A DNA stretch of 12,383 bases from a virus, in the UHGV virus genome UHGV-1630673; one strand, given 5' to 3'. A program made the position numbers and the translations under genes. The notes below the pieces were generated by a model. It was not told the origin of the DNA and searched no databases. It worked only from the letters and a program-made list of their open reading frames with translations. Below, piece by piece: positions 3,107 through 12,383 of this stretch (position 1 is its first letter; each line of letters opens with the position of its first letter).

Positions 3107-3468
3107 TAGCTCCAATATTCTCTGTCTGCGCGGCAAGCCAGGCTGTAAAGGATTTATTGGGTACCAACCCCGTCAGGCTCTATCCCTTCGGGATACAGGA
3201 TGACAATATCGTTTACCCCTACGCGGTCTGGCAAAACATTGGCGGCTCTCCTGAAAATTACCTGAACCAGCGGCCAGATGCTGATCACTACTCTCTTCAG
3301 GTTGATGTTTATGGTGATACCGATGCAGATGTAATTGCCGTGGCCCACGCATTGCGTGATGCCATCGAAGGGAAAGCCTATATTACCCGGTGGGGAGAGC
3401 AAAGCCGTAATGATTCCACGATGAAATACCGCTATTCCTTCGATGTTGACTGGATCGCGTCCAGGTAA
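3103..3468 (+). CDS. Tail completion / tail terminator-like protein (121 aa, DUF3168-like pattern)
   Basis: AGGAA Shine-Dalgarno 3091-3095; ATG 3103 overlaps the upstream stop (ATGA). N-terminal pattern SQAVKDLLGTNPVRLYPFGIQDDNIVYPYAVWQ resembles tail completion proteins encoded immediately upstream of major tail genes. The family call is tentative. Confidence 0.6.
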   Translation: MIAPIFSVCAASQAVKDLLGTNPVRLYPFGIQDDNIVYPYAVWQNIGGSPENYLNQRPDADHYSLQVDVYGDTDADVIAVAHALRDAIEGKAYITRWGEQSRNDSTMKYRYSFDVDWIASR

Positions 3469-3486
3469 CCAACAACCCTAAACTGA

Positions 3487-3512
3487 CCCGCTTTGAGCGG
3501 GTTTTTCTATTT
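3487..3512 (+). terminator. Intrinsic terminator-like hairpin upstream of the major tail gene
   Basis: CCCGC (3487-3491), loop TTTGA, GCGGG (3497-3501), followed by TTTTTCTATTT (3502-3512). It sits between the tail completion gene stop (3468) and the major tail Shine-Dalgarno GGAGA (3515-3519). Confidence 0.5.
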
Positions 3513-3525
3513 ATGGAGACTAAAA

Positions 3526-4017
3526 ATGTCTGTATTAACGCAAGGCACACAGTTCTTTGTTCTGAAATCTGGCGTGGTCAGCGAGGTTGAATGTATCACT
3601 AGCTTCAATCCCGGCGGCAACCCCGCCGATCAGATTGAAGATACCTGCCTGAGTGAACGGGATTCCAGAACCTACAAAAAAGGTCTGAAAACGCCAGCGG
3701 CTGCAACTGTCGGGCTCAATGCTGACCCGACGAACGCCAGCCACATCATGCTACATGGCCTTGCAGAAGCTAATGACCAGGCGTCATTAACTTTTGCCGT
3801 TGGCTGGTCAGATGGCACCAGCGTTCCGACCGTTGCCGCTTCCGGCGATGAAGATGCTGTTGATGGTCTGGTGCTTCCATCTGATCGCACCTGGTTTATT
3901 TTCCAGGGCTATGTTTCCGATTTTCCATTCGATTTTCAGGGCAATGCGGTTGTGACGACCTCTGCCACCATTCAGCGCTCGGGCTCTTCAGTATGGGTTC
4001 CGAAAGCCGCCGCGTAA
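3526..4017 (+). CDS. Major tail (tail tube) protein (163 aa)
   Basis: GGAGA Shine-Dalgarno 6 nt before ATG 3526 (track start 3493 is a TTG inside the terminator). Its position immediately before the chaperone G/GT pair, its size, and motif resemblance to lambda gpV N-domain-like tube proteins ([12 protein letters not shown]..., [10 protein letters not shown]..., [11 protein letters not shown]) support the call. Hairpins flank the gene on both sides. Confidence 0.75.
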
Positions 4018-4024
4018 CCATTAT

Positions 4025-4050
4025 GCCCGGAAATCCGGGCTTCACTATTC
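4025..4050 (+). terminator. Hairpin / attenuator after the major tail gene
   Basis: GCCCGG (4025-4030), loop AAAT, CCGGGC (4035-4040), then TTCACTATTC. The stem is perfect but the U tract is weak, so this may be a partial terminator or a stabilising hairpin. Confidence 0.4.
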
Positions 4051-4060
4051 AGGAGTTGAA

Positions 4061-4444
4061 ATGCAGCTTACTCTCGATACGTTAAAAGAAACCGGGGCAT
4101 TCACTGGCCGCCCGGTAGAGAAAGAAATCAAATGGAAAGGTCGTGACGGGCAAGAACATATTGCAACCGTCTTTGTACGTCCTATGGGCTACCACACCAC
4201 TAAAGCTGAACTGCTGGCGTATAACGGCAAATCAGATCCGGTGGCTGGGCGTATTGCCGCCCATATCTGTGATGAGGAAGGCAAGCAAATCTTCACCGAG
4301 GCGGACATTCTCGGAACTGCATCTGAAGACCGTGGTGCACTTGATGGCCCGATTGTTATTGCCTTGCTGACCGTAATTCAGGGAGTCAACGAGCTGGGAA
4401 AGACTACGAACTCACAGGAGAAGACGAGTTCTGGTGTGAGTTAG
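4061..4444 (+). CDS. Tail assembly chaperone (lambda gpG-like), zero-frame product (127 aa)
   Basis: AGGAG Shine-Dalgarno 4051-4055 and ATG 4061. Position between major tail and tape measure genes. Contains an in-frame slippery heptamer near its 3' end; stop TAG 4442-4444. Confidence 0.8.
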   Translation: MQLTLDTLKETGAFTGRPVEKEIKWKGRDGQEHIATVFVRPMGYHTTKAELLAYNGKSDPVAGRIAAHICDEEGKQIFTEADILGTASEDRGALDGPIVIALLTVIQGVNELGKTTNSQEKTSSGVS

Positions 4445-4710
4445 TCATGAACGGCATTGGCGGGAGAACGATCGAGGAGGCTCAGGAGCGAATGAGCCTC
4501 CGTGAGTTTCAGATATGGGTAAAGTACCGCAATAAGTATGGTCAGCTTAACAACATGATGCGAACCGAGTGGGGGGCCTCGATGGTCGCTTCTGTTCTGG
4601 CGAACATCAATAAGGCGAAGAACACGCCTACTTATAAGGTCAGTGACTTTGCGCCCCATATCAATGAATCCCCTTTGTCGCTTCAAGATGCCATGAAAAA
4701 TTGGCACTGA
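4061..4710 (+). CDS. Tail assembly chaperone G-T fusion made by -1 frameshift at 4396-4402 (predicted ~216 aa)
   Basis: The -1 frame downstream of the slip site encodes DYELTGEDEFWCELVMNGIGGRTIEEAQERMSLREFQIWVKYRNKYGQL...ASVLANINKAK..., resembling the lambda gpT-like domain pattern. The T-frame ATG at 4447 has no Shine-Dalgarno, consistent with expression only as a fusion. Confidence 0.75.
4396..4402 (+). other. Programmed -1 ribosomal frameshift slippery heptamer G GGA AAG
   Basis: GGGAAAG at 4396-4402 lies in the G reading frame as G|GGA|AAG (codons 113-114 = Gly-Lys), the same heptamer and phasing as the phage lambda G/GT shift site. The -1 frame is open from 4402 to TGA 4708-4710, with no stop across the junction. 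Confidence 0.8.
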
Positions 4711-4773
4711 TAACTGTTAAATGCAGTGCAGGATCACTATCATCAGTAAACTAATAACTACTGGGATAGGGAT

Positions 4774-5151
4774 ATGAAAAAGTTAATTTTCGCTTTAGTA
4801 CTTGGCGCATCCGCTTTAACAATTACTGGCTGCGCCCCAACAGTCCAGAAAATCGACTACAACCAGAAATCTATGCTTCTATCTCTTGGGATGAGCAAAA
4901 ACGATGTTATGCAGATTATGGGATCGCCTAGAAGGACTGATGTTAACCCAGAGCGCGAACGCTGGATTTATTGGAATAAGTCTCTATACGGCTACACTAT
5001 TATCGATAACGAACAATTAGCTAATGATCGACTAGTTGTTACGTTTGTAAGCGGGAAAGTGGCTAAGTGGGGCCAACAAACATTGGCTGATGATGTCATG
5101 GAATCATCACAAAAAACCGCCCAAGCTTATGCCGAGGCACTTAAAAAATAG
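4774..5151 (+). CDS. Moron: predicted outer-membrane lipoprotein with BamE (SmpA/OmlA)-like motif pattern (125 aa)
   Basis: N-terminus MKKLIFALVLGASALTITGC is a signal peptide with lipobox ITG|C; residue +2 is Ala, so outer-membrane sorting is predicted. Mature part LSLGMSKNDVMQIMGSPRR...ERWIYWNK...LVVTFVSGKVAKW follows the BamE-like pattern (GM[ST]..V...G[ST]P...W.Y...[LV]TF..GK[LV]). The gene is clearly AT-rich relative to the head genes and is followed by a strong intrinsic terminator. Confidence 0.8.
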   Translation: MKKLIFALVLGASALTITGCAPTVQKIDYNQKSMLLSLGMSKNDVMQIMGSPRRTDVNPERERWIYWNKSLYGYTIIDNEQLANDRLVVTFVSGKVAKWGQQTLADDVMESSQKTAQAYAEALKK

Positions 5152-5172
5152 TCGCTTAAATTAAATTATGAA

Positions 5173-5195
5173 CCTCGCCTCGGCGGGGTTTTTTT
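5173..5195 (+). terminator. Intrinsic terminator after the lipoprotein moron
   Basis: CCTCG (5173-5177) pairs with CGGGG (5184-5188) (5 bp including one G-U pair, 6-nt loop), followed by seven T residues (5189-5195). Confidence 0.6.
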
Positions 5196-5213
5196 ATGCC
5201 TGGAGAAAACTTA

Positions 5214-7754
5214 ATGGCTGGAAAATCCCTTGGTACATTAACAATTGACCTGATAGCAAAAGTAGGCGGATTTGTTCAGGGGATGGATAAGGCTGAAAGG
5301 TCGTCCCAAAAATGGCGCGATCAGGTAAAAAAAGACGCTAAAGAGGTTGGGGCATCCCTGGCTGCTATTGGCGTAGCAGCAGCTACTGCTGCCGTTGGAA
5401 TTGGCATTGCTGGTCTGGCGATTGTAAAAAACACCGCTCAGCAGGTAACTGAGGCTGACAGGTGGGCAAAATCATTAAAAATGTCCACTCAAGATTTATT
5501 ATCCTGGCAATACGCAGCTGAACAAGCCGGTTTAACTGGCGATAATATTGCAGATATTTTTAAAGATATTAACGATAAAGTCGGCGATGCGGTTCTGAAC
5601 AAATCAGGTGAGGCTGCTCAGGCACTGGATACTCTCGGGCTTTCAGCTCAGAAGTTGGCCCAGCAATCCCCTGACAAGCAACTGATGGCTATCAGTGGAG
5701 CATTACAGAAAATCCCCTCTCAGGCCGGGAAAACCAATATCCTCGAAAGTCTGGGTAATGACCTGTCAAAAATGTTGCCGTTGTTCGATAACAATAACGA
5801 GAAATTGAAGCAATTTATCCAGTTGTCAAAAGATTTTGGTGTCGCACCTCCCCAGGAAGATATTGATAATCTGGTTAAAGTTAATCAGTTCTTTCAGGAT
5901 ATCGAGACCAGCGCGCGCGGCATGAGGATGGAAATTGCATCAGGTCTAGCAAAAATTGATCTGTCACCTTTGCAGGATGGGCTGGATGATATTCGAGACG
6001 TATTTACTGATCCTGCTGTTCTTCAGGGTATTTCGGACCTTGTAGGTGAGGCAATCAGTCTTGCAGGAGTGGTTGGCCGAATAGCTGGTGGTTTGGGAGC
6101 TATCGCATCCTATACACGCTCTCGCGTTGGTGCCGTATCAGGGAATTACGATGCTTCCGATCTAAACGACGTAGAACAGCGTATTGAATTCCTGAACAAG
6201 AGAGGTAACCAGAGTAAGGAACAAAAAGAAGAGTTAGATTTTTTAAACAAGCGCCGTGATTTTTTGCAAGCAATCAAAGGATCGATACTCACCCCAGAAG
6301 AATCACAAAGGGCCGCGAAGGGGATGCAGTCCTTGCTTTCTGACATGGACATAGAGCCGAACACCACTGATAATTATAATCTTGGTAAAGATGAATCGAA
6401 CCAGAAGCAAACTGCTAAGAAAAACCCAACTGATAACGCATTCAAAAGTAGATTACTAGACTTACAGAAACAAGCTGCACTTATTGAAACTACTGGTAAA
6501 AAAACAGCTGAAGTTACAGAGCTTGAAAAAATAAATTTTGATATTGCCAGTGGGAACCTGAAAAAATTATCTGAGGATCAAAAAGAACAGCTTCGTATTG
6601 CTGCAAAAACACTTGACTCTAAAAAAGAAGAACTGCGACTTAACCAAGAGAATGCAAAGGTTGCAGAATATATTTCCGGTTTAACAAGGCAAAACAAGCT
6701 TGTCCGACAGGGATATGATAACGAAATTATGGGTCTTTCTTTGGGAAGTAAGGACCGTGGCAGAATGCGAGAGTTAAATGGCATTCAGCAGGATTTCGAA
6801 TCGAGACAAGAGGAACTTTTAAATCAACTTCAGTCTGGTGATATTGATAATAGTTTATATGATAAAAAGAAAGAGGCGTTAAAGGATGCACTTAAAGAAC
6901 GCTTGCAAATACAGGAAAGTTATTATCAGGAGTCAGATGATTTACAAAGTGATTGGCAATCTGGCATCTCAAGTTCATTAGCTGACTTTGCTGACATTTC
7001 TAGTGATTACTACCAGCAAGCAGCTAATGCGATGACATCGATACTGGGTTCAGCTACTGATTCCATCTCTGAGCATTTATATAATGTTATCGATGGTACC
7101 GAGTCGATGGGAGAAGCTATAAAAGGTATTTTTGCAGATCTTGGTGAATCTGTGATTCAAGCTCTTGTCGATATGGCTGCTCAATGGATTGTGTACCAGG
7201 GTGTCCAAATGCTGGTTAACAAATCAGTACAGGCCTCTGCTATTCCTGCAATGATTGCTAATGCACAGGCTACTGCATTACAGGGTCAACTTGCCGCTTT
7301 TGCTTCAACCGCCGCAATACCAATAGTTGGGCCTGCAATGGCTCCAGCAGCCATGGCTGCTGCCGCTGCTGTAACGCAACCAATGGTTGCTGCTATATCC
7401 GTCGCTTCAATATCAGGTATGGCGCATGATGGCATTGACTCAGTACCAAAAACAGGAACCTGGCTCCTACAGGAAGGTGAACGAGTTACCACAGCTAAAA
7501 CCAGTGCAAAGTTGGATGCTACGTTGGATCGGGTAGCGAACCAGTCAACCGGCGGTGGCGCTATCTATGCCCCAAATATCACCATTCCTATCAATGGCAA
7601 TCCTTCAGATGCCACATTGTCGCTGGTACGTAAGGCGGCTGATGAGGGGGCTGAGCGCGGATATCGGAAAGCTGTTAACTCCATAGCCAGCGGGCAGGGT
7701 GATTTGCACAAGGTATTAATGGGGAAAACAAACTCGGGGAGGAAAATTGGCTGA
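5214..7754 (+). CDS. Tail tape measure protein (~846 aa)
   Basis: Longest gene of the tail module, immediately after the chaperone pair. Features: N-terminal hydrophobic segment (LAAIGVAAATAAVGIGIAGLAIV), long charged helical centre, and Ala/Gly-rich hydrophobic C-terminal region (AAFASTAAIPIVGPAMAPAAMAAAAAVTQPMVAAISVAS). GGAG 5202-5205 is 8 nt before ATG 5214; the track start ATG 5196 sits directly on the terminator T-run with no Shine-Dalgarno. Confidence 0.85.
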   Translation: MAGKSLGTLTIDLIAKVGGFVQGMDKAERSSQKWRDQVKKDAKEVGASLAAIGVAAATAAVGIGIAGLAIVKNTAQQVTEADRWAKSLKMSTQDLLSWQYAAEQAGLTGDNIADIFKDINDKVGDAVLNKSGEAAQALDTLGLSAQKLAQQSPDKQLMAISGALQKIPSQAGKTNILESLGNDLSKMLPLFDNNNEKLKQFIQLSKDFGVAPPQEDIDNLVKVNQFFQDIETSARGMRMEIASGLAKIDLSPLQDGLDDIRDVFTDPAVLQGISDLVGEAISLAGVVGRIAGGLGAIASYTRSRVGAVSGNYDASDLNDVEQRIEFLNKRGNQSKEQKEELDFLNKRRDFLQAIKGSILTPEESQRAAKGMQSLLSDMDIEPNTTDNYNLGKDESNQKQTAKKNPTDNAFKSRLLDLQKQAALIETTGKKTAEVTELEKINFDIASGNLKKLSEDQKEQLRIAAKTLDSKKEELRLNQENAKVAEYISGLTRQNKLVRQGYDNEIMGLSLGSKDRGRMRELNGIQQDFESRQEELLNQLQSGDIDNSLYDKKKEALKDALKERLQIQESYYQESDDLQSDWQSGISSSLADFADISSDYYQQAANAMTSILGSATDSISEHLYNVIDGTESMGEAIKGIFADLGESVIQALVDMAAQWIVYQGVQMLVNKSVQASAIPAMIANAQATALQGQLAAFASTAAIPIVGPAMAPAAMAAAAAVTQPMVAAISVASISGMAHDGIDSVPKTGTWLLQEGERVTTAKTSAKLDATLDRVANQSTGGGAIYAPNITIPINGNPSDATLSLVRKAADEGAERGYRKAVNSIASGQGDLHKVLMGKTNSGRKIG

Positions 7755-8233
7755 TGGCTATTACAACACCGATTAATTACCCCTCGGACTATTTGCCAGG
7801 ACCTCTTAAAGATAGTTTTGGTCTTAAGCCAGTTTCGCCGCTAAAAAGCACGCCAATTATTACTGGCAGGCGACGTCAAAGGCGTGCTTATACATCCGTA
7901 CCTACAGAAACAGATATTGCATGGCTCTTTGATGATGCCCAGGCGCAAGCTTTTGAGGCGTGGTACCGGGATGTGCTTTCTGATGGCAGCGCCTGGTTTA
8001 ATATGCCTTTGCTGACGCCTGTCGGACATAAGAATTACGTCTGCAGATTTACAGATATCTATAGGGGGCCGACGCCAGAAGGTGGTTTGTTCTGGCGCTA
8101 TGTTGCGCCCATTGAGTTATGGGAGCGTCCTATGCCTCCTGCTGGGTGGGGGTATTATCCAGAATGGATTACGGGTAGTTCGCTGCTTGATATTGCGCTG
8201 AACAAGGAGTGGCCGAAGCATGACGGTGATTAA
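7754..8233 (+). CDS. Minor tail protein (159 aa), tail-tip/distal tail component by position
   Basis: ATG 7754 overlaps the tape measure stop TGA 7752-7754; GGGGAGG at 7737-7743. First gene after the tape measure, so a tail-tip role is inferred from position. No family recognised. Confidence 0.55.
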   Translation: MAITTPINYPSDYLPGPLKDSFGLKPVSPLKSTPIITGRRRQRRAYTSVPTETDIAWLFDDAQAQAFEAWYRDVLSDGSAWFNMPLLTPVGHKNYVCRFTDIYRGPTPEGGLFWRYVAPIELWERPMPPAGWGYYPEWITGSSLLDIALNKEWPKHDGD

Positions 8234-8702
8234 CCAACTTTATGCCAGCAGCGGTTCTGAAGCCATTATTGAAACACTGCAAATAACTGTCGGAGATACG
8301 ATTCATTATATTTGCAATGGATATGAAGATATCACCGCCACCACAGAAGGAGGGCAAACAGTAACGTTTATAGCGGGAGGAATTGAAATTGCTCTACCAG
8401 CCAGGAACAGTGATGGGACACAAGATTTAAAATTTGTGGTCGGTAACATTGATGGTGAGGTCTCAACAATCATTACGGATGCGTTGGACGACCTGAGTGA
8501 ATCGTCATTGACCTATCGGAATTACACTTCTGATGATCTGTCTGCACCCGCTTCCCCTCCCTATACGCTGAAGCTGAAGCCCGGCTACTGGACGGCTCTT
8601 CAGGCACAGCTTACGGCAGGGTATCTGAATGTACTTGATACGGCCTGGCCCCGTAATCGTTACAAGTTGCCATTCTTCCCTGGACTTCGCTACACGAACT
8701 AA
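8220..8702 (+). CDS. Minor tail protein (160 aa), tail-tip component by position
   Basis: AAGGAG 8204-8209 upstream of ATG 8220; overlaps the upstream gene by 14 nt. Tandem stops TAA TAG (8700-8705) are followed by a terminator. Function inferred from position. Confidence 0.55.
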   Translation: MTVINQLYASSGSEAIIETLQITVGDTIHYICNGYEDITATTEGGQTVTFIAGGIEIALPARNSDGTQDLKFVVGNIDGEVSTIITDALDDLSESSLTYRNYTSDDLSAPASPPYTLKLKPGYWTALQAQLTAGYLNVLDTAWPRNRYKLPFFPGLRYTN

Positions 8703-8726
8703 TAGGTAAGCGAACCAACAAATCTA

Positions 8727-8749
8727 CCTCGCATTGACGAGGTTTTTTT
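8727..8749 (+). terminator. Intrinsic terminator (second copy of a repeated motif)
   Basis: CCTCG (8727-8731), loop CATTGA, CGAGG (8738-8742), then seven T residues (8743-8749). Shares the 16-nt string GGTTTTTTTATGCCTG with the terminator at 5187-5202. Confidence 0.6.
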
Positions 8750-8773
8750 ATGCCTGTGATTTGCGGAGGCGTG

Positions 8774-9154
8774 ATGTTCAAACAGGAAAAATATGAATCC
8801 GTTGTCTGGCTGAAAGGTGGTCGTGATTATCCAAATCTCGACTGCTTCGGCCTTATCAATGAAGTTCGGCGGGACCTCGGTCTACCCGCCTGGCCGGATT
8901 TTGCAGGAGTGACGAAAGATGATGGTGGTCTCAACCGTGAGGCCAAAAAATTGATGATATCGCTGACCCGTTGTGAGCCCAGCGAAGGGGCTGGGGCTGT
9001 TTGCTATTCCGGGTCCACCGTCACACATGTTGCCGTTGTCGTGCGGATTGGCGATCAGTTGCTTGTTGCAGAGTGCAACCCGCAAACAAACGTGACATTT
9101 CTTCCTCTGTCTCGTTTCAAACGGCGGTTCGTTAAAGTGGAGTTCTGGCAATGA
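8774..9154 (+). CDS. NlpC/P60-like (papain-fold) tail protein, lambda gpK-type peptidase domain (126 aa)
   Basis: Candidate catalytic Cys in NLDCFGL, downstream His in THVAVVV, and a polar residue ~17 aa later (AECN), spaced as in NlpC/P60 domains. Position before the host-specificity gene fits. Start is ambiguous: ATG 8750 has no Shine-Dalgarno, while ATG 8774 is 4 nt after GGAGG (8765-8769). Stop overlaps the next start (ATGA at 9151-9154). Confidence 0.55.
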   Translation: MFKQEKYESVVWLKGGRDYPNLDCFGLINEVRRDLGLPAWPDFAGVTKDDGGLNREAKKLMISLTRCEPSEGAGAVCYSGSTVTHVAVVVRIGDQLLVAECNPQTNVTFLPLSRFKRRFVKVEFWQ

Positions 9155-12100
9155 CCATCAGATTTTACCCGTCCCGCCTGCCTGGTGAGCCGCTGGAAAC
9201 CCACGAACATGGCGCGATGTCCTTTCATGAATGGATGGTAAAGAATGTAAAAGAGTATCGGGAGCAGGAAAAACATCCGATTGCGGTTGAAGTGGGGGGC
9301 ATTAACGTTCCTCCTCATGAGTGGCCACTTTGCTTTATCAAACCTGAAAGTGATGTTCGAATTTATCCGGTCCCCTTCGCAACGGCTGCTGCCGTTGCAG
9401 CATGGGCGGCGCTGGCGATTGCTGCTGCCTCAGCTGTTTATGTTTTGATCACAATGTCCAATATGGACAAAGGCGGATACTCTTCATCGAGCGGCACTGG
9501 TCTTGATTTAAATCCGGCAAAAGCCAATACCGCAAAATTGGGTGACCCCATCCGGGAATTATTCGGGCGCTATCGTGTATACCCTGATTATGTTGTGCAA
9601 CCGGTCACTCGCTTTGACCCGAACGACCCGACGATCATGCGTGTGGAAATGCTCCTTTGCGTGAGTGTTGGCAATGTCGCGTTCACAAATGGTGATATTC
9701 GTGTCGGCGAGACTCCAACCACAGCGCTTGGGGAGTCGTTCTCCCATGATGTTTACCCACCAGGCTCTGATGTGTCGGCAGATCGTCGCAGTGAAAACTG
9801 GTACAACTCGACTGAAGTGGGCGGTACGTCAAGCGGGACGGGCCTTGATATGGCTCAAACCTCTCCTGACTCAACGGACATCACCGCTGACAGTATGACT
9901 GTTTCCGGTGCATCGGTGACATTTAACGGATTAGACGACGATAACGATGATGACGATGAAGGGAATGCGTTGCCAGAATCGTGGGTGACGGGAACTATTG
10001 TAACTATCGTTGCGCCAACCAATTATCTGGTTTCAACCTCATCGGGTTATAGCGTTCTTACCAGCGATACGCTGGCGGAAATTAATCCAGCCGCCGGAAT
10101 GCCAGTCACGCTGGAGATTAACGGTGCAGAATATGACCTGGTGATCGCAACGTATACCCCAAAACAGGATGCGGTTCCTGGTGTCGGGGGAGGTGCTGCT
10201 GCTGTACGTGGAAATGCTGCACCGACAACCTATGATTTTTCCACATCGGGACAGACATTTGATTTAACCTGGAATGCAACTTCCTTCACCGTCTCCCTTG
10301 TAGCTGATTATCTGAATATGTCAGGACTTCTGGCGGCAATTAATGAAGGGCTGACGGGGTCGGGGCTGGTTGCTCAGGATGATGGCGGTGTTGTGCGGAT
10401 AGTTGAAATATCCAGCCCGTGGAGGGGCGGAAATATCACATCATCAGCACTCCCCGTTTCTGTTTTTGGTGACACACCGGAATTTACTGCTGGTACGCCC
10501 TCAAGTGGTGGAAGTCCTGCGATCACGGCTAATGTTACGCTCGCTTATGGTCGCGCAACTGGTGCGGCATTCTCGGGAATTCCGGAGGGGACACAGCGGC
10601 TTTCTCTGGCTCATCGTGGTAACGAATATCGGATTGCTGATGCTGACGGTACTACAGCAACGGTTCAGCGTGTGGTCGAAGGTGTTGTTGATCCTTCTTG
10701 GTTGGGGTTTGCCCCGCGCACGATGATCGATTATCAGGCTACGGGTATTAACGACAATAATACCTGGATGGGGCCGTTTCTTGTTTGTCCTGAAAATGAA
10801 GTTGTGGACGCCTTCGAGGTGAACTTCTCATTTCCTTCCGGGATTTGCGGTTTTGACAACAAAGGCAAAAAGCGTATCCGCCATTGTGAATGGGAAATTC
10901 AGTACCGCGTTTATGGTTCTGGTGCCGGATGGGCCAGCCGCGAAGGCGTTTATGCTCTGCAAAACGTCAATGGCCTGGGATTTACTGAACGGTTTGATCT
11001 CAGCACTCCCGGCCTTGTCGAAGTTCGTTGTCGCCGCCGGAACGAGCAAGGGAGTAACAATGCTCGTGATTCTATGTACTGGCAGGCATTGAGAGGGCGG
11101 TTACTTTCACGGCCTGCATCTTATCCTGGCGTTACGCTTCTGGCGGTGACGGTGGAAACCGGCGGGAAGCTGGCCGCTCAGTCTGATCGGCGAGTGAACG
11201 TTGTCGCAACGCGAATTTATGACAAAGGTGCGGCAAGAAGTATTTCAGGTGCGTTGTATCATGTTGGTGGTTCGCTTGGACTTGATATGGATACTGAGGC
11301 CATTGATCTTCTGGAAACCACGGTATGGACACCCAATGGTGAGTATTTCGATTTCGCTGCTGGTGACAGTATCTCTGCCCTTGAAATGCTTCAGAAGATT
11401 GCTAATGCCGGGAGGTCCTATTTCCTGCTGAGTGATGGACTGGCGTCTGTAGGGCGGGAAGGGGTTAAGCCGTGGACCGGGGTTATCAGCCCGCATGAAA
11501 TGACCGAAGAGCTGCAAACAGCCTTCACCCCGCCATCTGATGATGATTATGATGGCGTTGATGTCACTTATATCAACGGTACAACGTGGGCAGAAGAGAC
11601 GGTGCAATGCCGTATGCCTGGCAACCCTACACCTTTTAAAGTTGAAAACTATGAACTTGACGGCGTTCTTAACCGAGATCACGCCTATCAGATAGGCATG
11701 CGCAGGCTGATGAAATATCAAAAGCAGCGGCGTAACTATTCAACGACGACCGAGCTTGACGCGCTTTGTTATAATTACGGGGATCGTATTTTGCTGACGG
11801 ATGATATCCCTGGAAATAAAACGATTAGTTGTCTTGTTGAAGCAATGAACACAGCAGACGGGGTCACAACGTTCACGGTTACGGAGCCGCTCGACTGGTC
11901 ATTTGAAAATCCACGGGCAATCCTGCGTTATCAGGATGGCTCGGCTTCCGCTTTGCTGGTGGCCTCAGCGGTTGGTGACTATCAGCTGTCTGTTCCATAT
12001 GACTCAGAGTTTGACGGGATCATATTAAATGATCCGTATATCGAACCGCCGCGTCTGATTTTCTGCACATCTTCACGCAGGACATACGACGCGATTATAG

Positions 12101-12207
12101 AAGAGATTGCGCCTCAATCCGATGGTACATGCCAGGTGACTGCCCGTCAGTACCGTGATGATTTCTACGCCTACGACGACGCCACATACCCCGGCGACGT
12201 CGCTTAA
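9151..12207 (+). CDS. Host-specificity / tail tip central fibre protein (gpJ-like), 1018 aa, with gpI-like N-terminal region
   Basis: Largest ORF at the distal end of the tail module; GGAG 9139-9142 is 8 nt before ATG 9151. N-terminal ~190 aa contain an Ala-rich hydrophobic segment (FATAAAVAAWAALAIAAASAVYVLI) followed by LGDPIRELFGRYRVYP, resembling the lambda gpI pattern. The remainder has the size and character of gpJ-like proteins. Acidic tract LDDDNDDDDEG at ~9931-9963. Confidence 0.8.
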   Translation: MTIRFYPSRLPGEPLETHEHGAMSFHEWMVKNVKEYREQEKHPIAVEVGGINVPPHEWPLCFIKPESDVRIYPVPFATAAAVAAWAALAIAAASAVYVLITMSNMDKGGYSSSSGTGLDLNPAKANTAKLGDPIRELFGRYRVYPDYVVQPVTRFDPNDPTIMRVEMLLCVSVGNVAFTNGDIRVGETPTTALGESFSHDVYPPGSDVSADRRSENWYNSTEVGGTSSGTGLDMAQTSPDSTDITADSMTVSGASVTFNGLDDDNDDDDEGNALPESWVTGTIVTIVAPTNYLVSTSSGYSVLTSDTLAEINPAAGMPVTLEINGAEYDLVIATYTPKQDAVPGVGGGAAAVRGNAAPTTYDFSTSGQTFDLTWNATSFTVSLVADYLNMSGLLAAINEGLTGSGLVAQDDGGVVRIVEISSPWRGGNITSSALPVSVFGDTPEFTAGTPSSGGSPAITANVTLAYGRATGAAFSGIPEGTQRLSLAHRGNEYRIADADGTTATVQRVVEGVVDPSWLGFAPRTMIDYQATGINDNNTWMGPFLVCPENEVVDAFEVNFSFPSGICGFDNKGKKRIRHCEWEIQYRVYGSGAGWASREGVYALQNVNGLGFTERFDLSTPGLVEVRCRRRNEQGSNNARDSMYWQALRGRLLSRPASYPGVTLLAVTVETGGKLAAQSDRRVNVVATRIYDKGAARSISGALYHVGGSLGLDMDTEAIDLLETTVWTPNGEYFDFAAGDSISALEMLQKIANAGRSYFLLSDGLASVGREGVKPWTGVISPHEMTEELQTAFTPPSDDDYDGVDVTYINGTTWAEETVQCRMPGNPTPFKVENYELDGVLNRDHAYQIGMRRLMKYQKQRRNYSTTTELDALCYNYGDRILLTDDIPGNKTISCLVEAMNTADGVTTFTVTEPLDWSFENPRAILRYQDGSASALLVASAVGDYQLSVPYDSEFDGIILNDPYIEPPRLIFCTSSRRTYDAIIEEIAPQSDGTCQVTARQYRDDFYAYDDATYPGDVA

Positions 12208-12238
12208 TACCCCATAAAAACCCCTTATTAACTCTTTT

Positions 12239-12272
12239 CGCACAAACCCTCGTTTGCGCGAAGCCTCTTTTT
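12239..12272 (+). promoter_or_regulatory. Imperfect hairpin with downstream T-run between the host-specificity gene and the next gene
   Basis: CGCACAAAC (12239-12247) pairs with GTTTGCGCG (12252-12260) with one mismatch, loop CCTC; a TTTTT run (12268-12272) lies 7 nt downstream. Not a canonical terminator geometry. Confidence 0.3.
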
Positions 12273-12284
12273 GGAGCAAAAAAC

Positions 12285-12383
12285 ATGGCTGCAGATCTGA
12301 ATCCGCCGCTGGGTACGACGACGCCTGAAATCTTTTTAGATAACGTTAAGCGGGCCGATCGGTTAGTGAACGGGCCGGAGGAA
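12285..12383 (+). CDS. 5' end of next gene (3'-truncated by window edge); unknown, possibly tail fibre or accessory protein by position
   Basis: GGAG 12273-12276 is 8 nt before ATG 12285; open frame MAADLNPPLGTTTPEIFLDNVKRADRLVNGPEE runs to the window end. Only 33 codons are visible, so function cannot be assigned. Confidence 0.45.
   Translation, partial: MAADLNPPLGTTTPEIFLDNVKRADRLVNGPEE

Follow-up and report, generated by a model that had tools for sequence, protein, structure and literature searches.

Two similar predicted terminators lie at the probable edges of cargo slots in the tail region of a Klebsiella-type lambdoid prophage

The window analyzed here, a stretch of 12,383 nucleotides (nt) from the virus genome UHGV-1630673, covers the head-tail region of a Klebsiella-type lambdoid prophage and contains two near-identical elements in which a hairpin is followed by a run of T residues. 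One element lies upstream of the tail tape-measure gene (site 1) and the other upstream of a K-like minor tail gene (site 2). The explanation we favor, at a probability of roughly 0.68, is that both elements belong to one terminator family found in the late regions of enterobacterial lambdoid prophages, and that each copy forms the downstream edge of a slot for optional cargo, just before the next essential tail gene. The anatomy of the two elements, their pattern of conservation, the co-occurrence with cargo and the start codons of the two downstream genes are supported directly, while termination itself, read-through by the antiterminator Q and common descent of the copies are what we infer from them. 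Both sites are features of an ordinary and already understood kind.

Anatomy of the two copies

The 16-nt string GGTTTTTTTATGCCTG was found twice in exact form on the + strand, at 5187–5202 and 8741–8756, and the sequence CCTCGC was found at 5173–5178 and 8727–8732, as a sequence-only reading of the window had pointed out. No third match to the 16-mer was present in the window at up to two mismatches, and none of 200 shuffled sequences contained two matches. The similarity extends over 31 nt (copy 1, 5172–5202; copy 2, 8726–8756; both on the + strand), of which 27 are identical, and all four mismatches fall in the hairpin loop or the 3' arm.

The same reading had regarded both copies as terminator-like, and this was borne out, as both were flagged as terminator-like, fold as RNA and carry U7 directly 3' of the stem. 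The predicted intrinsic terminator at site 1 (5170–5195, + strand) has a stem of 9 base pairs formed by 5170–5178 and 5183–5191, a CTCG loop (CUCG in the RNA) and seven T residues (T7) at 5189–5195, with a folding energy of -14.6 kcal/mol. The one at site 2 (8726–8749, + strand) has a stem of 6 base pairs formed by 8726–8731 and 8738–8743, the 6-nt loop CATTGA and T7 at 8743–8749, with a folding energy of -8.1 kcal/mol. Both stems are more stable than their composition predicts (z -3.2 and z -2.7, respectively), and at both sites T7 begins within the last stem pair. Site 1 starts 19 nt past the stop at 5151 and site 2 starts 24 nt past the stop at 8702, both co-oriented with these genes. Each copy immediately precedes the ribosome-binding site of the tail gene that follows; the hairpin-proximal Shine-Dalgarno sequence is predicted to be unpaired, and in a read-through mRNA the hairpin would lie just 5' of it. 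Rfam families gave no match at either site when the window was searched at E ≤ 1. This anatomy points to Rho-independent terminators, at which transcription would be expected to stop.

The longest exact direct repeat in the window is 16 nt. Markov simulations gave a probability per window of a repeat of at least 16 nt of 0.5% (order 1) to 2.5% (order 3), so the 16-mer alone is only mildly unusual. The 31-nt pair is non-random, given the extension to 27 of 31 positions, a stem common to both copies and their occurrence in two intergenic gaps out of only seven.

Site 1 follows a variable gene

Relatives were gathered through the K-like protein (n = 80), and in 67 of them the start of the tape-measure gene lay inside the locus. 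A hairpin with a T-run was located directly upstream of the tape-measure gene in 56 of these 67 relatives, with stems of the CCTCGC type in 33, the CCCGC type in 18 and other types in 5. At least six different stems occupy the equivalent position, and all of them pair, with energies from -10.8 to -21.6 kcal/mol: AACCTCGC/GCGGGGTT, ACCTCGC/GCGAGGT, AAACCCGC/GCGGGTTT, GCCCGC/GCGGGC, GGCCCC/GGGGCT and CCACCT/AGGTGG. The stems were judged by single-sequence folds, an alignment of 20 sequences being broken by a one-base register shift between stem variants. Since the stem sequences vary and yet all pair, selection for the structure is indicated.

Eleven of the 67 loci lacked the terminator, and nine of these formed a lineage in which the G-T chaperone gene and the tape-measure gene overlap end to start and no other gene separates them. 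The terminator was thus present in 56 loci with a slot gene and absent from nine without one, showing that it co-occurs with the inserted gene. Among the relatives, the slot holds at least five unrelated families of small lipoproteins, signal-peptide proteins or membrane proteins.

The slot gene of the window (4774–5151, + strand) encodes a BamE-like lipoprotein of 125 amino acids that begins MKKLIFALVLGASALTITGC (Pfam BamE, E = 1.5e-5; PHROG 18614, of unknown function), with a lipobox in its translation. The segment 4712–5157 is swapped for unrelated genes in six relatives (L001, L020, L032, L054, L210 and L212). The G+C content of the slot gene is 42.1%, compared with 50–53% in the upstream tail genes, and that of the downstream tape-measure gene is 44.3%. 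From its slot and its replacement among relatives, 4774–5151 is read as a cargo (moron-like) gene in the classical HK97 gp15 slot, with site 1 as its predicted terminator.

Site 2 lies at a second junction with varied inserts

Site 2 is contained in a lineage-specific spacer of 71 nt (8703–8773, + strand), between the DUF1833 minor tail gene and the K-like gene, which is an insertion relative to a 9-nt junction, TAAGGAATCCCAATG. This tight junction, with no hairpin, was found in 73 of the 79 relatives with sequence upstream of the K gene, and a spacer of 71–72 nt with the hairpin was found in only L002 and L003. A scan of bacterial genomes added the Raoultella locus L224, which brings the hairpin lineage to four (window, L002, L003 and L224); all four keep an intact stem, and the loop varies. 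Searches with blastn found the spacer neither among 50,697 annotated records of phages nor in any of 5,426 complete genomes of E. coli. The L224 locus (Raoultella terrigena) is a decayed prophage from which the head and most tail genes are deleted, with a breakpoint near the hairpin and not within it; an Rz-like spanin gene and a gene of 50 amino acids are fused there to the last DUF1833 codons, ~35 nt before the hairpin.

Inserts of 757–1223 nt were found at the DUF1833|K-like junction in four relatives. Exactly at this junction, L213 (16106–17197), L046 (3795–4886) and L053 carry a gene of 77 amino acids together with a reverse-strand gene for a TIR protein of 292 amino acids, which matches the PADLOC defence candidate PDC-S66 (E = 1e-115). 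L073 carries a DUF1883 gene at the junction (850–1119, - strand), and L044 carries a gene of 184 amino acids and of unknown family with its own terminator, GCCGCACAAAGCGGC-T6 (4237–4791). Such varied inserts identify the junction as a recurrent cargo slot and, in view of the TIR genes, as a hotspot of defence cargo in a prophage tail operon. The site-2 core, CGCATTGACGAGGT, can be aligned with the part of the TIR insert nearest the K gene, TTCGCATCAACGAGGT...ATG, a hint that the slot has a common right edge.

The 71-nt spacer itself contains no open reading frame, and site 2 is therefore not a moron but at most a remnant or the edge of a slot. Most simply, by analogy with site 1, site 2 would be the orphan terminator of a cargo slot, either the remnant of a cargo unit or its resident insulator.

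Inside the DUF1833 gene, ~190 nt upstream of the site-2 terminator, we noted a promoter-like sequence, TTGACC-18-GATGAT, at 8508–8537. It is present in the window, L002 and L003 and absent from the relatives that have no hairpin. It could define a short transcript, but it lies in coding sequence, and promoter-like hits do not outnumber those in shuffled sequences.

Mosaic edges and exchange between relatives

It had also been suggested that the repeated motif could mark module boundaries used for recombination, with the pair bracketing the tape-measure/minor-tail block. At site 1 the first suggestion was sustained: homology to five relatives (L001, L020, L032, L054 and L212) stops at 4704–4712 and returns at 5157–5171, so site 1 is the right edge of a variable cassette. 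At site 2 it was not, as this site lies inside a block that is collinear with L003. The collinearity spans ~7900–12383, with the DUF1833 gene, the hairpin, the K-like gene and the J-like gene in common, and identity to L003 runs at 82–86% from ~8250 uninterrupted through the hairpin to the end of the window. Compared with L214, the window is 99–100% identical up to ~3250, 80–95% up to ~7250 and 65–70% further on. The lineage switch is located at ~7250–8250 and not at site 2, and the pair therefore does not bracket an exchangeable tape-measure/minor-tail module. A mobile or exchangeable block between the copies was rejected as well, because the intervening genes are collinear core tail genes in all relatives and site 2 is missing in 73 of 79. 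Each copy is better described as the probable right edge of a separate cargo slot.

A third slot was observed between the tail tube and chaperone G genes in L212/L215 (11444–12236) and L214 (11444–12218). It holds an ORF11CD3-like or a KilA-N gene, each with its own terminator before the ribosome-binding site of G.

The return of homology at 5157–5171 is also what would be expected of a recombination linker, in which AACCTCGC-N4-GCGRGG-T6-7-AT(T)GCCYGGAG would be a conserved junction cassette that allows exchange of cargo and tape-measure modules through short homology and that has been copied to the second junction in the manner of the PeSL cassettes, which provide a precedent (PMC2839356). 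We consider this rather unlikely. One cassette does follow three unrelated slot genes (those of the BamE-like lipoprotein, the L020-family lipoprotein and the L003 membrane protein) and does precede tape-measure genes with unlike N-termini (MAGKSLGTL, MTEQTSRLA, MAENAGSIY, MSEQDGGTL and others), and the homologous slot genes of L003 and L012 have different hairpins after them, but no conserved left-hand junction accompanies the cassette, and site 2 is not a breakpoint. Over 27 distinct loci, the cassette had a mean identity of 92%, between a left flank at 66% and a right flank at 75.5%, and it was still 89% identical in 20 pairs with both flanks unrelated; part of this high identity follows from the selection of the loci, for which the regular expression used already specified about half of the positions in the cassette. 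A recent exchange with its breakpoint inside the cassette was not found among the comparisons, all of which were at 65–95% identity. The genome holds only three copies, with no promoter component, and the unit occurs in non-phage contexts as well.

If a linker function did apply, the combination of terminator and ribosome-binding site could be a portable lambdoid counterpart of PeSL, common to tR', to the junction upstream of the tape-measure gene and to the tail-tip junction, that would use short-homology recombination to target the insertion, loss and exchange of cargo, both exclusion and defence genes, to safe intergenic sites of the late operon. Site 2 would in that case be a freshly seeded or recently emptied slot. 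We consider this extended form rather unlikely too.

A wider terminator family and its limits

The proposal of a phage-specific terminator family survived in a weaker form. The whole window is contained in a 146-kb metagenome contig (L211, 7438–19820), and within 20.5 kb of this source genome CCTCGC-N4-GCG(G/A)GG stems occur at three late junctions, at L211 2645, 12610 and 16166. The third copy, at L211 2643–2662, lies outside the window and upstream of the terminase genes. It reads AGCCTCGCACAAGCGGGGCT-T5-ATTGGAGGAAATATG, and its layout of hairpin, T-run, ATTG, Shine-Dalgarno sequence and start is that of the window copies. CCTCGC-stem terminators were also found at several late junctions in relatives.

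A viral scan with the full unit, in which 21 bases were specified, returned eight loci, of which two belong to the site-2 lineage, three lie before other tape-measure genes and three are at the tR' position. In the last group, the unit directly follows the Q genes of L082 and L083/L236 (Pfam Antiterm, E = 1e-35, for L082 and L083), and in L088 it separates a Q-position gene from the holin gene. The bare hairpin was present in more than 120 viral contigs in many contexts. About half of the hairpin copies continue with AT(T)GCCYGGAGAAA and a gene start, and most of the genes that follow this continuation encode tape-measure proteins of 900–1200 amino acids with very different N-termini. Matches to the hairpin alone were rejected as evidence of homology, only seven stem bases being free among terminators.

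The 31-nt unit was not confined to phages. Among 185,579 bacterial genomes scanned, it was found in 23 loci, four of which are prophage tail or Q contexts. The remaining loci represent ~14 independent ordinary gene ends in Photobacterium, Cedecea/Phytobacter, Enterobacter, Pseudomonas, Vibrio, Corallincola and others, and some of these chromosomal copies are as close as the window copies are to each other (29–30 of 31–32 positions to site 2, 36/39 to site 1). Because ordinary chromosomal gene ends carry it, the unit is neither phage-specific nor boundary-specific. The special relation to module boundaries that the sequence-only reading had proposed for the motif was accordingly lost in part, given its presence at chromosomal gene ends of unrelated Gammaproteobacteria.

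The same chromosomal copies, with 21 specified positions and matches as close as those just given, would also be accounted for if the two window copies were unrelated ordinary terminators that look alike by convergence, since strong terminators form a narrow class in which a stem rich in G+C closes on a stable tetraloop and the T-run ends in AT. The more than 120 viral contigs with the bare hairpin and the 0.5–2.5% of simulated windows with an exact 16-nt repeat are in line with this, and a rough estimate of the number of contexts expected by convergence is 0.3–3, with the observed count within about an order of magnitude. However, the rough probability that two of the ~5 terminators in a 12-kb window match both in the stem and in the five bases after T7-AT is ~1e-6, and the stem family is over-represented in the phage group of the window (33 of the 56 site-1 terminators; three copies in the genome itself). 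Convergence is therefore judged improbable, and the two window copies likely descend from a common ancestor. When the site-2 spacer was compared with ~240 loci, the similarity ended at the 31-nt core and a few further bases. Gene conversion between the copies was set aside, as it would explain one base only (ATGCCTG at site 1 of the window, compared with ATGCCCG or ATGTCCG in the closest relatives) and left no sign in the loops.

Start codons of the two tail genes

The downstream in-frame ATGs at 5214 and 8774, each preceded by a Shine-Dalgarno sequence, were confirmed (GGAG 5202–5205 with the tape-measure ATG 5214–5216, spanning 5202–5216; GGAGG 8765–8769 with the probable K-like ATG 8774–8776, spanning 8765–8776; both on the + strand and both assigned from the starts of homologues). 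Tape-measure homologues begin MAGKSLGTL at the codon equivalent to 5214, and the protein that starts there is matched by the PHROG 2854 profile from its first residue on. Where the window reads T7-ATGCC, most relatives read T6-ATTGCC, which leaves no upstream ATG and shifts the frame. The ATG of the motif at site 1 is therefore firmly excluded as the tape-measure start, and the idea that termination is coupled to re-initiation at this ATG fails with it, because in most family members the ATG is missing and the frame does not continue.

At site 2, the counterpart of codon 8774 is where all K-like homologues begin, with MF(N/K/H).., and 8774 is probably the start of the K-like gene, rather than the motif ATG at 8750. 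The earlier statement that the motif ATG lacks a Shine-Dalgarno sequence needs correction here, as GAGG at 8739–8742 lies 7 nt upstream of the ATG at 8750, although buried in the 3' arm of the hairpin. An eight-codon extension from 8750 is in frame in all four members of the site-2 lineage. The gene calls on the source contig placed the tape-measure start at 5214 (846 amino acids), but the K-like start at 8750.

These last observations are the ones expected of a translational device, in which the motif ATG would be a real alternative start with its Shine-Dalgarno sequence in the 3' arm of the hairpin, and the hairpin would switch between a long and a short form of the protein or couple termination to re-initiation. 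The extensions MPVICGGV, MPEICGGV, MPEFCGGV and MPENCGGV in the four members, the K start of L213, L046 and L053 that aligns with the motif ATG after ACGAGGT, and the gene caller's choice of 8750 agree with it. Four closely related sequences nevertheless have little power to show that a frame is maintained; homologues of both proteins all start at the downstream ATG, the tape-measure profile covers the 5214 start from its first residue, and most members of the site-1 family, with ATTGCC, have neither the ATG nor the frame. We regard such a device as very improbable. Rather than a start codon, the motif ATG is a by-product of a T-run that continues A-T-G, firmly so at site 1 and probably so at site 2.

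Proposed function and points against it

In a lysogen, the two terminators would stop transcripts that arise from cargo or spurious promoters before they reach the tape-measure and tail-tip genes. Site 1 would end the transcription unit of the lipoprotein gene 4774–5151, and site 2 would act as a terminator with no gene of its own, as the remnant or resident insulator of a cargo unit. During lytic growth, RNA polymerase modified by the Q protein of the lambdoid late operon would read through both terminators. Among the genes of a complete relative are those for CI, Cro, O, RusA and an annotated antiterminator Q. The dependence on Q is drawn from this relative, because the Q gene and tR' of the window phage lie beyond the DNA analyzed; this DNA runs out, upstream of the holin gene, in an AT-rich stretch that carries a reverse-strand gene.

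Several observations weigh against the explanation of the two sites as slot-edge terminators of one family, among them the location of Q and tR' outside the analyzed DNA. No sigma-70-like promoter with at least 9 of 12 consensus positions was found upstream of the slot gene, in 4711–4773, and the promoter-like hits in the window do not exceed those in shuffled sequences. Scans of viral, genome and metagenome sequences and an exact-protein look-up did not find a cargo gene in front of a site-2-type hairpin and returned only the lineage of the window or identical phage, so that site 2 is read as an orphan by analogy. The stability of the hairpin at this site is only moderate, and its T-run is interrupted in L003 (GGTTGTTTT). 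Finally, the ~14 chromosomal gene ends with the 31-nt unit are independent occurrences in unrelated bacteria.

Gene content and other features of the window

Gene identities were assigned from Pfam and PHROG profile matches. The tail tube gene (3526–4017), the chaperone G gene (4061–4444) and the chaperone T gene (4447–4710) precede the slot gene. They are followed, on the + strand, by the tail tape-measure gene (5214–7754, 846 amino acids; Pfam Tape_meas_lam_C; PHROG 2854, E = 3e-291), a virion structural or minor tail gene (7754–8233, 159 amino acids; PHROG 384, E = 1.4e-52), the DUF1833 minor tail gene (8220–8702, 160 amino acids; Pfam DUF1833, E = 8e-36; PHROG 396) and the K-like minor tail gene (8774–9154, 126 amino acids; PHROG 329 minor tail protein, E = 8e-12), and then by the J-like gene (9151–12207). 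The capsid module is 94–100% identical to those of many Klebsiella prophages, and the window phage is itself a lambdoid prophage of this type. A head/tail mosaic junction was located at 1954–1981, and the sequence from 1 to 1954, with the capsid and connector genes, matches Klebsiella prophages that have different tail modules.

Hairpins were present in almost all intergenic gaps of the late operon in the window. One follows the capsid gene (1346–1364) and has no clean T-run, another follows the tail tube gene (GCCCGGAAATCCGGGC, 4025–4040) and has no T-run, and a terminator-like hairpin lies directly upstream of the tail tube gene (3485–3503). The last is overlapped by a weak Rfam match at 3440–3507 to isrK, a prophage Hfq-binding small RNA (20.4 bits, E = 0.82, well under the gathering score), which is probably due to chance.

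Several homologues carry misleading public labels. Among those in ON470622/L001 and hits H31–H47, the K-like protein is labelled a "nitrite transporter", the J-like protein a "kinase", the DUF1833 protein an "ArsR family transcriptional regulator" and the slot gene "obscurin". An E. coli relative, L239 (ON470622), has a gene for a retron-type reverse transcriptase (40834–42318) downstream of its tail fibre genes, as further defence cargo at the end of the late region.

Comparison with known systems and implications

HK97 gene 15, the first moron described, is located between the tail chaperone and tape-measure genes, and morons are described as having a promoter and a terminator of their own, through which they are expressed from a repressed prophage (PMC3594210). 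The gene at 4774–5151 resembles it in its equivalent slot, its presence or absence among relatives, and a predicted factor-independent terminator of its own that follows at site 1. Its G+C content is lower than that of the upstream tail genes but near that of the tape-measure gene downstream. Its small, predicted envelope-located product also resembles cargo of the exclusion type. It differs from a moron in that a convincing promoter was not found and in that the terminator sequence is common to unrelated cargo genes rather than tied to one gene; site 2 differs further in having a terminator and no gene.

With a hairpin and U-tract inside a long late transcription unit, and an annotated Q in a relative, both copies are like the terminators of Q-antiterminated late operons. 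The identical 31-nt unit just downstream of Q in L082, L083/L236 and L088 adds a likeness to tR'. Unlike tR', however, the window copies are internal to the tail genes, ~10–14 kb downstream of the lysis genes.

A parallel in layout comes from the T4-type phages, in which PeSL (promoter-early stem-loop) cassettes mediate modular shuffling (PMC2839356). Both are repeated intergenic cassettes with a stem-loop terminator that finish with the next gene's Shine-Dalgarno sequence and start, and the window cassettes are associated with variable genes and plausibly insulate their neighbors, as in that system (PMC2839356). PeSL cassettes, however, contain a strong sigma-70 promoter, number ~50 copies per genome, flank ORFans on both sides and were shown experimentally to recombine into mini-circles (PMC2839356). 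Neither window cassette contains a promoter-like element, and the three CCTCGC-stem copies in 20.5 kb each lie at the right edge of a slot only. No recombinant junctions between copies turned up in the general scans, none of which was aimed at them. Compared with the linkers of Botstein and Campbell, as PMC2839356 summarizes them, the site-1 cassette is similar as a conserved island between divergent flanks; site 2 is unlike them in being confined to one lineage and off the breakpoint, and recombination within the cassette was not seen.

The value of these results lies mostly in annotation. They bear on the start codons of two tail genes, which gene callers and the sequence-only reading extended or could have extended, and they identify 4774–5151 as probable cargo in an HK97 gp15-type slot. 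Moron exchange has so far been described as independent of conserved flanking sequences (PMC2839356); if the cassette did prove to be a recombination anchor, it would show concretely how the targeted exchange of morons could work in lambdoid prophages. The DUF1833|K-like junction appears to be a second cargo slot and, with a TIR candidate already present there in relatives, may be a place to look for new prophage-borne defence genes.

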